Part shown: positions 50,398-56,702 of the stretch, piece after piece
Layout of the letters: every line of letters starts with the position of its first letter
How positions within the stretch are numbered: the first letter of the stretch is position 1
NCBI RefSeq assembly: GCF_055900595.2
Contig: NZ_CM148325.1
DNA length: 64,000 nucleotides
Reading direction: 5' to 3' (one strand)
Translations under genes and position numbers: made by a program
Notes under the pieces: model-generated
What the model saw: the letters and a program-made list of their open reading frames with translations, nothing else
Told to the model about the DNA's origin: nothing
Database searches by the model: none

Positions 50398-50711
50398 TCT
50401 TTCCGCGTCTCATCTTTATCGGTGAGACGCACCCTCAAAATTCCTCCTTCACTCCATTTCTTTTCGCGTTATTCCCGTTCATTCAACTTAAGTCTCCATT
50501 TTTTTGCATTACTGCTATCTGTCAGACCTCCGTTTTTCTGTTGATAAAACACTCTTTTTGACGTTTTTACAGACTAATTGAGCGTGAAGTGTGCAAACGA
50601 TAAAAGTGTGGGAAAAATTGTTTGACTTATAAGTCTCAGAAAGTAATATGTGCGCCACGCAGCGACGATGAGCGATAAACAAGTTCTTCGAAGCACTCGT
50701 AAGAGGCGTGT

Positions 50712-50804
50712 GGTGAGGTGGCCGAGAGGCTGAAGGCGCTCCCCTGCTAAGGGAGTATGCGGTCAAAAGCTGCATCCGGGGTTCGAATCCCCGCCTCACC
50801 GCCA
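50712..50804 (+). tRNA. serV: tRNA-Ser (anticodon GCU)
   Basis: 93 nt with long variable arm, anticodon loop CU-GCU-AA, 3' CCA encoded. Confidence 0.93.
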
Positions 50805-50807
50805 TTT

Positions 50808-50884
50808 GCATCCGTAGCTCAGCTGGATAGAGTACTCGGCTACGAACCGAGCGGTCGGAGGTTCGAATCCTCCCGGATGCACCA
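50808..50884 (+). tRNA. argV: tRNA-Arg (anticodon ACG), copy 1
   Basis: 77 nt GCATCCGTAGCTCAGCTGGATAGAGTACTCGGCTACGAACCGAG...CACCA; 3 nt after serV. Confidence 0.93.
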
Positions 50885-50947
50885 TATTCTACGAAATCTT
50901 CAGCAATGAAGGTGTCGAAGAGGTGGCGGTACTAACCGCAAGCACCA

Positions 50948-51019
50948 GGGAGGATAACGTTGCTTTAGCAACGGCCCGAAGGGCGAGCCGTAAGGCGAGT
51001 AATCCTCCCGGATGCACCA
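50948..51019 (+). other. tRNA-like structured spacer element ending in a copy of the tRNA-Arg 3' end
   Basis: 72 nt: stem GGGAGGA...TCCTCCC, internal hairpins, terminal aatcctcccggatgcacca identical to tRNA-Arg 3' 19 nt. Confidence 0.45.
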
Positions 51020-51083
51020 TCTCTTACTTGATACGGCTTTAGTAGCGGTATCAAAAAATCTGCAGTAAAGTAAGTTTCCCGAT

Positions 51084-51160
51084 GCATCCGTAGCTCAGCT
51101 GGATAGAGTACTCGGCTACGAACCGAGCGGTCGGAGGTTCGAATCCTCCCGGATGCACCA
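51084..51160 (+). tRNA. argY: tRNA-Arg (anticodon ACG), copy 2
   Basis: 77 nt, identical to copy 1. Confidence 0.92.
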
Positions 51161-51262
51161 TATTCTCCGTAATCATCAGTGATGATGGTTAAGATGGATT
51201 TTCTTATTTGATATGGCTTTAGTAGCGGTATCAATATCAGCAGTAAAATAAGTTTTCCCGAT

Positions 51263-51339
51263 GCATCCGTAGCTCAGCTGGATAGAGTACTCGGCTACGA
51301 ACCGAGCGGTCGGAGGTTCGAATCCTCCCGGATGCACCA
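51263..51339 (+). tRNA. argZ: tRNA-Arg (anticodon ACG), copy 3
   Basis: 77 nt, identical to copy 1. Confidence 0.92.
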
Positions 51340-51549
51340 TATTCTCCGTAACCTTCAGCAATGAACGTATCGAAGAGGTAGCGGTACTAACCGCAGGCAC
51401 CATCTCCTCCAAAAAATCCCCTTCAAAAATATTTCATTTCTAAATAACTATTTTATCCATTTCCTGAATATTCTTCTCCTTCGCCATCAGCGACAAAATC
51501 AAGCAATTACGCTAAAGTAGCGTCATATTTTTCGACTTGCGAGAAGACC

Positions 51550-54175: not shown

Positions 54176-54250
54176 AAGAAAAAGGCCACTCGTGAGTGGC
54201 CAAAATTTCATCTCTGAATTCAGGGATGATGATAACAAATGCGCGTCTTT
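54176..54250 (-). ncRNA. micA: small regulatory RNA MicA (SraD)
   Basis: Minus strand reads GAAAGACGCGCATTTGTTATCATCATCCCTGAATTCAGAGATGAAATTTTGGCCACTCACGAGTGGCCTTTTT; between gshA and luxS, divergent from luxS. Confidence 0.85.
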
Positions 54251-54319
54251 CATATACTCAGACTCGCCTGGGAAGAAAGAGTTCAGAAAATTTTTAAAAA
54301 AATTACCGGAGGTGGCTAA

Positions 54320-54885: not shown

Positions 54886-55998
54886 TTACCTGTCAGTCAC
54901 CCGATATTCCACGCTATGTGCTTCATCAGGTTGAGGAACTTCCAGCCTTGAGGCCATCCGCATCACGACCGCTTCAGGAACGGCATACTCGCGCCTGGCA
55001 TTTTGCTGCTTCCATTGCGCCCACGGTACTTCCAGATAAACGATTTTTACTCGTGCACCGTAAGCCGTAAATAGACTGATGAGCTGGCTACGCAACTGGC
55101 GGGTAATGTTCGTTGCATTCCAGATGAACGGCTTCTTCTGGCGTAAAAAAACGCGCGCTTCTTCTTTTGCCTGTTGCACAATACGCCCGGTGGCGGTTTT
55201 GTCGTCCGGACTGGCATTGATTCGCCGCCGCATATCATCAAGGCTGATAACGTTCACTCTCTGGCACTGTTCACTGATAAAGCGATCTTTGCCCATACCC
55301 GGTAAACCACACAGCAAAATAACCTCAAAAGATTCAGCCTCCCAGGGAACAAAATCAGGAGAACTTTGTTCATGGGTCAGGTAATGCCAGCGTGCGGAAT
55401 CCGAAGCGAATGAACGCACTTTTCCCCAGCATTGTTGCTCCTGGCAAAATAGCTCGAACAGATCGATGCGTTCCAGCATTGATTGCTGATCATGACAATG
55501 GCGACCAAGCAGATCGGCACGAGCAAGCAAAGCGAGCAGACGTGTGTCGATACGCATTGCAGCCGTGAGCAGCAAACGCTCCGGTTCCGGACGTTCCAGT
55601 AACCATAGCGGTAACCCATGCAGACGCACCAGTGCAACAATTTGCTCGCGTAGCACGAACGGCGTCGGGATATCGCGCCATAAAATTTGTCGGGCCGTCA
55701 ATTCCCCCCGACGAGCATGACCAGGGGACTGAATACGTCCGTTTTCCTGCACGGTAGTACTGCGCTTTTCAACGTCATGCAATAACGCCGCCGCCCATAA
55801 AATTTCCTGCTGCTGAGCGGGGAGTTGCTGAAACTCAGCCATCGCAACGAGTGCGTTCAGCACCATTTCAGTATGCACACCAACGTCGCCTTCACCATGA
55901 TGCTCCGGGTCTTGCGGCGTGTTATGCATATCCTCAACCCAGCTAAAACGCTGGCGTAGCGTCGACCAGCGTTTGTCGTCGGTAAGTTGCCAAATCAT
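54886..55998 (-). CDS. bifunctional HD-domain phosphoesterase / P-loop polynucleotide kinase-like protein (HD-Pnk type)
   Basis: 370 aa; N-terminal HD motifs ([18 protein letters not shown]), C-terminal P-loop-like GLPGMGKD; start overlaps upstream ligase stop (ATGA). Confidence 0.75.
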
Positions 55999-56702
55999 GA
56001 CTGTTCTCCATAAGCGAACTCATGGGCCATCCGCGCCCGTCGCCAGTGGCGTTTCCAGTGCTCGGTGGTTTTGACATGATTTTTGCGCACATACTTGAAG
56101 ACGTTATGCGAAAAGTCAGCGACGGAAAACGCATCACGATTCCGGCTGACAATGCCTTCCAGCGTACAGGGTTGCCCGGTTTGTGTATCCCAGGGATCGA
56201 ACGCGCCGCGCGCATTGGTCAGCGCCAGAAAATCACGTTGCCAGCTTTTTTCATCATTCCCCGGCTGCGGGCCGGAGATTTCGGGAACGCAGGGGAAATC
56301 AAACAGAGCGGCGTAAAACTGCACCTCTTCCCAGCTCAGCCACATATCCTGGCAGCGAACGGCAAACAGGTAAAAGTCCTGTTCCAGGGCGCGGTATTCA
56401 ATGGAATGAACGGCGTAGAGATTTTCACCAAACAGTTCCAGATCGCCGAGATCGTTTTTCAGCAGTTGCCAACGCTGGCGAATTTTATAAGTCCATGCCG
56501 ACTGCGTAGGCGCAGCATGGGAACGGGCAAACACGCCGTAGCGGTTAAGGCAGTTATTTTCGCCGTCGAGTTTTTCTGTATGCACCAATTGCGTGATGGC
56601 CTGTAAATCCTGCCAGTAATCGGCATTAATACGGTCATCGCTGGTGGTGCCAGGGGAGAAAGGATAATGCCAGGTTCTCCCGTATTTCCGTTGGGTATTC
56701 AT
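55995..56702 (-). CDS. ATP-dependent polynucleotide (RNA/DNA) ligase-like nucleotidyltransferase
   Basis: 235 aa; motif I KLDG, motif IV-like LEGIV, motif V-like FKYVRK; first gene of two-gene operon. Confidence 0.75.

Follow-up and report, generated by a model that had tools for sequence, protein, structure and literature searches.

A shortened, tRNA-Arg-linked relative of the RtT RNA in the serV-argX operon of Escherichia coli

In the serV-argX operon analysed here, a 72-nt element stands in the spacer that separates tRNA-Arg(ACG) copies 1 and 2. It is a relative of the RtT RNA (RF00391), shortened and without annotation, and not the scar of a mobile island. The element is homologous to RtT, has a structure that is conserved on the sense strand, is linked to the 3' end of the gene that precedes it, and belongs to a set of units that are gained and lost between direct repeats. 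Our overall reading, to which we assign a probability of roughly three in four, is that it represents a short-form, tRNA-Arg-linked RtT module that is co-transcribed with its operon, folds as a four-way junction, is probably excised as a by-product, and comes and goes between repeats of the tRNA 3' end. Elements of this kind are already known: RtT was described in 1991, reportedly by Bosl and Kersten as the rtT RNA encoded by rttR of the E. coli tyrT-tyrV operon, and is represented in Rfam. The novelty is modest, and lies in an Arg-linked short form that is unannotated in RefSeq and falls below the Rfam threshold, and in the extension of the RtT family to copies linked to 5S rRNA.

The element within the serV-argX operon

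The DNA analysed, hereafter the window, is a stretch of 64,000 nucleotides from contig NZ_CM148325.1 of the RefSeq assembly GCF_055900595.2, and all positions are counted from its first letter. The region is 100% identical to that of E. coli AST85 and displays the gene order alaS, csrA, tRNA-Ser, three tRNA-Arg, yqaB, yqaA, gshA and luxS. The operon corresponds to serV-argVYZQ of K-12, which carries four Arg genes; the three tRNA-Arg(ACG) genes of the window are identical to one another, and a three-tRNA-Arg layout exactly as in the window is rare, being found in 179 genomes. The element lies in a 199-nt spacer, on the same (+) strand as the tRNAs, and its surroundings comprise the following features:

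50622..50649, + strand: putative promoter-like site, TTGACT-16-TAATAT, upstream of serV (consensus scan)
50712..50804, + strand: tRNA-Ser(GCU), serV (ARAGORN; Rfam tRNA 56.8 bits)
50808..50884, + strand: tRNA-Arg(ACG) copy 1, equivalent of argV (ARAGORN; Rfam tRNA 67.1 bits)
50885..50947, + strand: module 1 of the spacer, two hairpins and then A-AGCACCA (sequence, predicted fold, spacer comparison)
50892..51019, + strand: predicted extent of an RtT-like RNA (span of the full-length Rfam RtT alignment; analogy with K-12 rttR)
50948..51019, + strand: short-form RtT-family element (fold z = -4.0; sub-threshold Rfam RtT; model R1, described below)
50948-50955 with 51002-51009, + strand: closing helix of the element (predicted fold)
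50958-50973, + strand: hairpin C of the element (predicted fold)
50975-50983, + strand: hairpin D, CCC-GAA-GGG (predicted fold)
50984-50999, + strand: hairpin E, flanked by CGAG/CGAG tandem G.A (predicted fold)
51001..51019, + strand: 19 nt identical to tRNA-Arg positions 58-76 (AAU of the T loop, 3' strands of T stem and acceptor, ACCA)
51010-51019, + strand: 3' strand of the element running on into GGATGCACCA (predicted fold)
51020..51083, + strand: basic 64-nt inter-tRNA spacer, which in element-free strains stands directly 3' of the tRNA
51084..51160, + strand: tRNA-Arg(ACG) copy 2 (ARAGORN; Rfam tRNA)
51161..51262, + strand: 102-nt spacer, its first 39 nt related to module 1 and fused to the basic spacer (spacer comparison)
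51263..51339, + strand: tRNA-Arg(ACG) copy 3, the last (ARAGORN; Rfam tRNA)
51340..51402, + strand: second copy of module 1, after the third tRNA and without the 72-nt element (spacer comparison)

An earlier note on this DNA, made from the sequence, had described a 72-nt segment with a closing stem, internal hairpins and an exact duplicate of the tRNA-Arg 3' end, and this description holds. The quoted segment is present exactly at 50948-51019, and its predicted fold is a helix, GGGAGGAU/AUCCUCCC, enclosing three hairpins. The predicted stability is -33.6 kcal/mol, against -21.0 +/- 3.2 in 200 dinucleotide shuffles (z = -4.0), none of which folds as stably; the minus strand folds slightly less well (z = -3.3). 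The last 19 nt, AATCCTCCCGGATGCACCA, are identical to those of tRNA-Arg including the CCA. The window has four copies of this 19-mer, at the three tRNA-Arg 3' ends and at 51001-51019, and 100 shuffles have none; the copies at 50866-50884 and 51001-51019 constitute a 19-nt direct repeat. The internal 48 nt of the element, on the other hand, occur only once in the 64-kb window. ARAGORN makes no call at 50948-51019 and there is no Rfam tRNA match to it even at E <= 10; the element imitates only the T-stem and acceptor strands of a tRNA. The fallback explanation offered in the earlier note, a pseudo-tRNA or a processing element of the precursor, comes close to what the kinship with RtT (see below) indicates, the first known RtT being an RNA set free from the tyrT precursor, but the element is no pseudo-tRNA with a cloverleaf.

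Module 1 is predicted to form the hairpins CUUCA-GCAA-UGAAG and GCGGU-ACUA-ACCGC, and its last 12 nt, CCGCAAGCACCA, are similar to the tRNA end CCGGATGCACCA, which suggests that they may be a degenerate 3' remnant of a tRNA. The 102-nt spacer at 51161-51262 is a third structural variant, of the same type as in O157:H7, and with all variants taken together the operon has at least four spacer types. In the minimum free energy fold of 135 nt the upstream GCACC pairs with the tail of the element to give an extended acceptor-like helix, which we rejected because it has no counterpart in Lys or Tyr copies; the pairing results from the palindromic UGCA contained in the tRNA-Arg end. A role as an RNase P substrate or natural external guide sequence was likewise left unadopted, the tail being of 8 nt instead of 4 nt. 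A small protein comparable to tpr was also discarded, as the only ORFs that overlap the element are short and unsupported.

Several other observations were made in this part of the window. ARAGORN reports a tRNA-Arg(tcg) at 50828-50899 on the - strand, opposite argV, but this prediction overlaps a real gene and lacks Rfam tRNA support on that strand, and was rejected as a mirror-image artefact. The MicA sRNA is found at 54180-54251 on the - strand (Rfam 83.9 bits), in its expected place between gshA and luxS. Approximately 3.5 kb from the tRNA operon, a two-gene cassette occupies the interval between luxS and emrB (54886-56702, - strand): the first gene codes for a 370-aa protein with a strong match to the AAA_33 P-loop kinase domain and a weak match, below the Pfam cutoff, to an HD domain, and the second for a 235-aa RNA ligase family protein (Pfam). 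The cassette looks like an RNA-repair pair that combines end-healing and sealing; PADLOC returned no match for its kinase and ligase genes.

Kinship with RtT and the conserved fold

A permissive Rfam scan of the element yielded one informative match, to RtT, which was sub-threshold. The family model aligns end to end with 50892-51019 (30.2 bits, E 1e-3), and its 3' half aligns with the element itself (32.7 bits, E 6e-5), so that the element does not reach the gathering score of 45 bits set for this 130-position model. The shortfall stems from the absence of the 5' hairpins A and B of the RtT model and not from divergence of the core: in the Rfam alignment the element and RtT are near-identical over AACGUUGC..GCAACGGCCCGAAGGGCGAG..CGAGUAAUCC, and the core that they share can be written as AACGUUGC-loop-GCAACGG-CCCGAAGGG-CGAG-hairpin-CGAGUAAUCC. 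The Arg copies of K-12 were likewise absent from a larger Rfam search at E <= 0.01.

Relatives were collected with a core-pattern scan of one genome per species, which gave at least 156 core matches at no fewer than 120 loci. From 40 aligned cores linked to tRNA-Tyr, tRNA-Lys (long form), tRNA-Pro, tRNA-Glu or 5S rRNA we built a covariance model, R1, with every Arg and short-form member excluded from the training set. R1 finds the element of the window at 50956-51005 with 62.7 bits (E ~7e-17). With filters off this is the one real match in the 64-kb window, the next on the + strand scoring below 7 bits, and the 102-nt spacer at 51161..51262 gives no match to the RtT core. The same model assigns 67-75 bits to the four tyrT RtT units, 53-63 bits to the three K-12 Arg copies, 50-59 bits to the E. 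coli Lys copies and 44.7 bits to the rrnB T1-T2 interval, and has no match in E. coli O127:H6. Like RtT, moreover, the element is placed behind a tRNA on the same strand, ends in the 19-nt tail, and joins the core to a closing helix that incorporates the T-stem 3' strand.

The 22 short forms (Arg and Lys) align readily, and the proposed structure pairs 93.9% of the alignment cells, against 27-50% when the partners are slid. It comprises a closing helix of ~10 bp, hairpin C, the CCC-GAA-GGG hairpin, and hairpin E with its flanking CGAG/CGAG. Compensatory changes in the alignments support a predicted four-way junction. At 17:80 the Lys copies have U-A where the Arg copies have G-C, and among the 40 diverse cores hairpin E shows such changes at five of its six pairs (69 cells against 20.6 +/- 3.6 in shuffles, a control that overstates significance because the aligned relatives are related by descent). 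The bases that flank hairpin C form a covarying purine-purine pair: of 62 distinct cores, 34 have A.G and 22 have G.A, 56 together, and the others A.A (5) or G.G (1). Hairpins C and D themselves were fixed by the search pattern, so that their invariance is partly a matter of ascertainment. A covariation-supported tandem G.A motif has been noted in RtT (PMC7657543), and we find that the tandem G.A of the tRNA-linked forms is replaced by G-C and A-U in the 5S-linked forms. The pairs include 31 G.U against 14 A.C mismatches, which together with the weaker fold of the minus strand favours an RNA of the sense strand; an antisense-strand reading was rejected on the same grounds.

The 3' strand of the closing helix is made of the T-stem 3' strand of tRNA-Arg and the first acceptor nucleotides, the last ~8 nt of the tRNA sequence being left unpaired. 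Its 5' strand reads as acceptor positions 5-7 joined to the T-stem 5' strand, and the helix as a whole imitates the T stem and the inner acceptor stem. The helix follows the type of the linked tRNA, with GGGAGGAU/AUCCUCCC in Arg copies and GUGAAGGAU/AUCCUGCAC in Lys copies, and in the Arg copies of Hafnia it takes the form GGGAAGAU/AUCUUCCU, tracking the T stem of Hafnia's own tRNA. Across types, 8.6-9.5 of the 10 positions of the 5' strand fit the tail of its own type, and 6.8-8.6 fit tails belonging to the other types.

Breadth of the family

In most of the matches from the core-pattern scan (at least 156, at a minimum of 120 loci) the final 19 nt of the gene upstream recur as the tail of the copy, with no more than one mismatch. 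The genes concerned, among the matches listed, are those for tRNA-Tyr(GUA) (~50 copies), tRNA-Lys(UUU) (~49), tRNA-Arg(ACG) (15), tRNA-Pro(CGG and UGG) (8), tRNA-Glu(UUC) (3) and, in Marinobacterium, tRNA-Arg(CCG), and a further 14 copies end in the 3' end of 5S rRNA; the hosts among the matches listed belong to the Enterobacterales, Orbaceae, Pasteurellaceae and Oceanospirillales. Within K-12, tyrT is followed by four units, each closing with the last 19 nt of tRNA-Tyr, and the annotated rttR has its start 7 nt past tyrV, its last bases being precisely the CCA of the repeat. The long spacers of the lysT operon contain Lys-type copies, detected by both Rfam and R1. In the distal region of rrnB a 5S form lies between the terminators T1 and T2, and beyond it AACTGCCAGGCATCAAAT, the 5S 3' end, occurs a second time (L127:229-326); this T1-T2 segment is present in many cloning vectors. 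Long forms score 52-137 bits with Rfam, Arg short forms and 5S forms go unrecognised, and the 5S-linked copies are sub-threshold for both RF00391 and RF02902.

In the long forms the core is preceded by the T-stem 5' strand and TTCGA of the copy's own tRNA, and in Yersinia by tRNA sequence from the anticodon stem onward; with this partial tRNA sequence in front of it, the core looks as though it had been inserted into a partial gene copy, between positions 58 and 59 of the T loop. In species other than E. coli the module is often found behind an intrinsic terminator and is then followed by a duplicate terminator; every Pro and Glu copy is arranged in this way, as are half of those linked to tRNA-Lys. 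Such modules would be transcribed only by read-through, which is awkward for a role as an abundant RNA.

Two kinds of rearranged copies were also encountered. In the tyrT-tyrV spacers of Citrobacter, Phytobacter and Kosakonia (L003, L017, L038 and L057) the core is joined to a tRNA-Tyr-like body, ...GTCATCGACTTCGAAGGTTCGA leading directly into the core; ARAGORN finds no intact upstream tRNA at these loci and the tail is diverged past AATCCTT, which suggests that a deletion has joined the T loop of tyrT to the T-loop remnant in the element. On one viral contig (L130) a tyrT RtT unit has had its 5' half cut off by unrelated DNA, and the breakpoint may be the boundary of an insertion sequence or prophage inside the repeat.

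A more far-reaching interpretation is that all these copies, covering Tyr, Lys, Arg, Pro and Glu tRNAs as well as 5S rRNA with the rrnB T1-T2 form, constitute a single, largely unrecognised superfamily. In it a core of ~50 nt would have been grafted into partial copies of stable-RNA genes, ~13-19 nt before the 3' end, with the closing helix re-fitted each time to the acceptor/T-arm minihelix of the host RNA and a tail resembling a tRNA left at the 3' side; the module would then be either a dedicated functional device of stable-RNA operons or the footprint of a mechanism that targets the 3' regions of stable RNAs. We regard this as a tentative and rather unlikely proposal. As such a device, the module might offer the enzymes of 3'-end maturation a decoy or a site of entry on read-through RNA in the stretch between tandem terminators.

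Variation, origin and comparison with known systems

Megablast finds the element in 4173 of 5426 complete E. coli genomes, at 1-5 places in each and never on a plasmid. In K-12 it stands behind argV and argZ, with a degenerate copy behind argQ. ST131 has three plain spacers of 62-64 nt and only the degenerate trailer copy, the arg operon of O157 is similar, and O127:H6 has no Arg-linked copy at all. The element-free spacers of ST131, O157 and O127:H6 have the form TCTCTTACTTGATA...CCCGAT and measure 62-64 nt. Filled and empty inter-tRNA sites differ by ~135 nt (module 1 and the element), with the repeated tRNA end at the borders, whereas filled and empty trailer sites differ by the 72-nt unit alone, with GCACCA at the borders. 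The window has such an empty trailer site at 51402/51403, where ...CAGGCACCA is followed directly by TCTCCTCC. At exactly this site, between GCACCA and TCT, the trailers of K-12, ST131 and O157 carry an RtT-type unit of 72 nt (70 nt in K-12), the K-12 trailer running from ...CAGGCACCA through the unit GGAAGGATAACG...GGATGCACCA into TCTTCTCC.

The trailer junction of O127:H6 lies within TTCTCC, downstream of the CCA, a position that fits recombination between direct repeats and argues against a T-loop crossover. The lack of any Arg-linked copy in this strain further implies that the element is inessential for the maturation of tRNA-Arg and that any function it has is dispensable. A survey from 2012 recorded that rttR of the tyrT operon was lost in E2348 and IAI39 (PMC3318445); O127:H6 is an E2348/69 derivative, and RtT-type elements at separate loci may thus have been lost together in one lineage.

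Among other accounts of the element, one would treat it as neutral debris, that is a tandem tRNA-Arg copy that decayed by loss of its D and anticodon arms, was kept tRNA-like by gene conversion and has no role. This accommodates the 3' strand, which is the tRNA itself, and the 5' strand GCACCAGGGAGG, which can be read as acceptor positions 1-7 (with one deletion and one insertion) plus the T-stem 5' strand; it is also in keeping with the tRNA sequence retained by the long forms (T-stem 5' strand and TTCGA, or in Yersinia everything from the anticodon stem), with the variable copy number, and with the one strain that lacks the element. However, the interior of ~46 nt is not derived from a tRNA and is conserved from Enterobacterales to Oceanospirillales behind at least seven genes, and one and the same core would not arise by independent decay. 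The covariation of hairpin E and of the purine-purine pair, and a closing helix whose pairs, also those beyond the T stem, are re-fitted for every tRNA type, also speak against mere decay, and we consider this account improbable.

Nor are we much persuaded that the unit is a selfish repeat acting at the DNA level, with a lifestyle like that of REP/BIME sequences, in which a non-autonomous unit spreads through recombination at the T-loop/T-stem AATCC, or by means of an enzyme, and duplicates the 3' end of its target. The same core does occur behind many genes at a constant 13-19 nt from the 3' end of the partial gene copy, tandem arrays and presence/absence polymorphism are seen, and the equal truncation of the Arg and Lys short forms suggests transfer between loci. 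Yet no transposase or recombinase was found in association with it, target-site duplications apart from the gene's own 3' end were not seen, an E. coli genome has just 1-5 Arg-type places, and the orientation is always that of the host gene; furthermore, selection on an RNA strand, as opposed to duplex DNA, is what the tandem G.A motifs and the excess of G.U over A.C indicate. Such a lifestyle is therefore doubtful at best.

The main proposal of the earlier note, that the 19-nt duplicate is a scar of integrase action, here an attR-type remnant of an island or prophage whose integration into tRNA-Arg, in the T-loop region, was followed by decay or imprecise excision, fares worst and is in our estimate extremely improbable. 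Integration at a T-loop site by tRNA-targeting integrases does give the geometry seen here, with a repeat of tRNA positions 58-76 flanking a 116-nt insert directly behind the tRNA, and strains with filled and empty sites exist; but the direct repeat of a tRNA 3' end is common to RtT and att scars and hence does not discriminate between them. No integrase, transposase or island lies within 9 kb on either side, where the adjoining genes are csrA, the tRNAs and yqaB, and neither the insert nor the spacer contains a credible ORF. Strains with an island in the site, which the earlier note suggested looking for, were absent among the E. coli genomes, whose variants have only 0, 72 or ~135 nt there, and among 2.9 million viral contigs there was no phage counterpart bearing an attP; of the four stretches recovered, one is a chance match within a coding sequence and the others are host flanks of the tyrT and Lys kind. 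A junction remnant would also not be expected to show compensatory changes in its interior, to share its core with copies, often arrayed in tandem, whose 3' ends are those of six further tRNA types and of 5S rRNA, or to be lost at a junction in TTCTCC, outside the T loop. K-12 itself has three copies, and matches extend to most of the E. coli genomes searched. There being no island or integration site at this place, a false lead is removed.

Under the preferred reading, that of a short-form RtT module, the element lies on the sense strand of the tRNAs inside the serV-argX unit and would thus be made as part of the polycistronic precursor. Its RNA would fold as a four-way junction, in which a hairpin (A)CGUUGC-loop-GCAACG(G), closed by the covarying purine-purine pair, is followed by the invariant CCC-GAA-GGG hairpin and then by the variable hairpin with CGAG...CGAG, all joined by the closing helix of ~10 bp. 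In the current model of tRNA precursor processing, RNase E cuts 1-3 nt past each CCA (PMC2190699). For the lysT operon, RNase P has been found to cut the tRNA 5' ends; the 3' trailers left behind, of up to 150 nt, were taken to be removed by RNase II and PNPase, and the study mentions no discrete product (PMC4176162). RtT, in turn, has been described as an RNA released from tRNA operon transcripts, such RNAs coming from "many other tRNA operons" (PMC4986893).

By analogy with rttR of tyrT, the nucleases that mature the flanking tRNAs would probably excise the Arg element, which would then be trimmed back to its own CCA and persist as a stable by-product RNA of ~72-128 nt. A closed helix with a short tail is the type of structure at which exonucleases like RNase II and PNPase stall, and the closed 10-bp helix of the element with its 8-nt tail could in this way define the end of the RNA. 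At the DNA level, identity with the tRNA 3' end provides direct repeats of 6-27 nt between which the unit is gained and lost, and this in turn accounts for the differences in copy number among E. coli strains. As to function, the tyrT RtT RNA, and that RNA only, has been suggested to possibly affect the stringent response or the response to amino-acid starvation. A partner of the element, be it a protein or a tertiary contact, is suggested by its invariant stems and its tandem G.A motifs. Our search of the literature for the arg operon spacers or for rttR function returned nothing specific: a preprint on pseudouridine mentions only tpr and a tRNA-Tyr antisense, and one on the mobilome reports raised coverage at rttR and nothing further on it.

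These results indicate that the RtT family is broader than the Rfam threshold captures, and that Arg- and Lys-linked short forms and 5S-linked forms are unannotated in E. coli, including K-12 and the rrnB terminator region. A closing helix that is re-tuned to each host RNA, in a module that often lies between duplicated terminators, makes the question of what the family does testable, and natural E. coli strains with none, one or three Arg-linked copies offer ready experimental material.

Set against known systems, the element resembles the attL/attR duplications left by integrases in having a direct repeat of the tRNA 3' segment from the T loop, and differs in that a conserved structured RNA module stands between the repeats and no island, integrase or phage counterpart was found. 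Another precedent for an RNA from a transcribed tRNA spacer is 3'ETS-leuZ, which Lalaouna et al. reportedly showed in 2015 to act, through Hfq, by base pairing to RyhB and RybB. As a spacer-encoded product of a tRNA precursor the Arg element would be comparable, but the two are unrelated in sequence and structure.

The 5S-linked relatives (in rrnB T1-T2, and the Pasteurellaceae family AaHKsRNA22 of Rfam, RF02902) have in common with the element hairpin C, the CCCG(A/G)AGGG hairpin and a variable third hairpin, and they too terminate with the 3' end of the gene next to them, AACTGCCAGGCAT; in contrast to the element, their tail is the 3' strand of helix I of 5S rRNA and Watson-Crick pairs replace the tandem G.A. 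The tyrT RtT RNA agrees with the element in its position behind a tRNA on the same strand, in a tail equal to the last 19 nt of that tRNA, in the core and in the use of the T-stem 3' strand by the closing helix. It is, however, ~130-171 nt long against 72 nt, the element lacking the two 5' hairpins of the Rfam model, and it is linked to tRNA-Tyr, whereas the element is linked to tRNA-Arg and has no tpr-like ORF. The Lys short copies of the lysT operon (lysY-lysZ and lysZ-lysQ) have the tail and closing helix of tRNA-Lys and no module 1 upstream, and they reach 55-60 bits with Rfam only through an alignment that crosses a tRNA gene; they share with the Arg element the truncated architecture, a near-identical core and a closing helix fitted to the tRNA.
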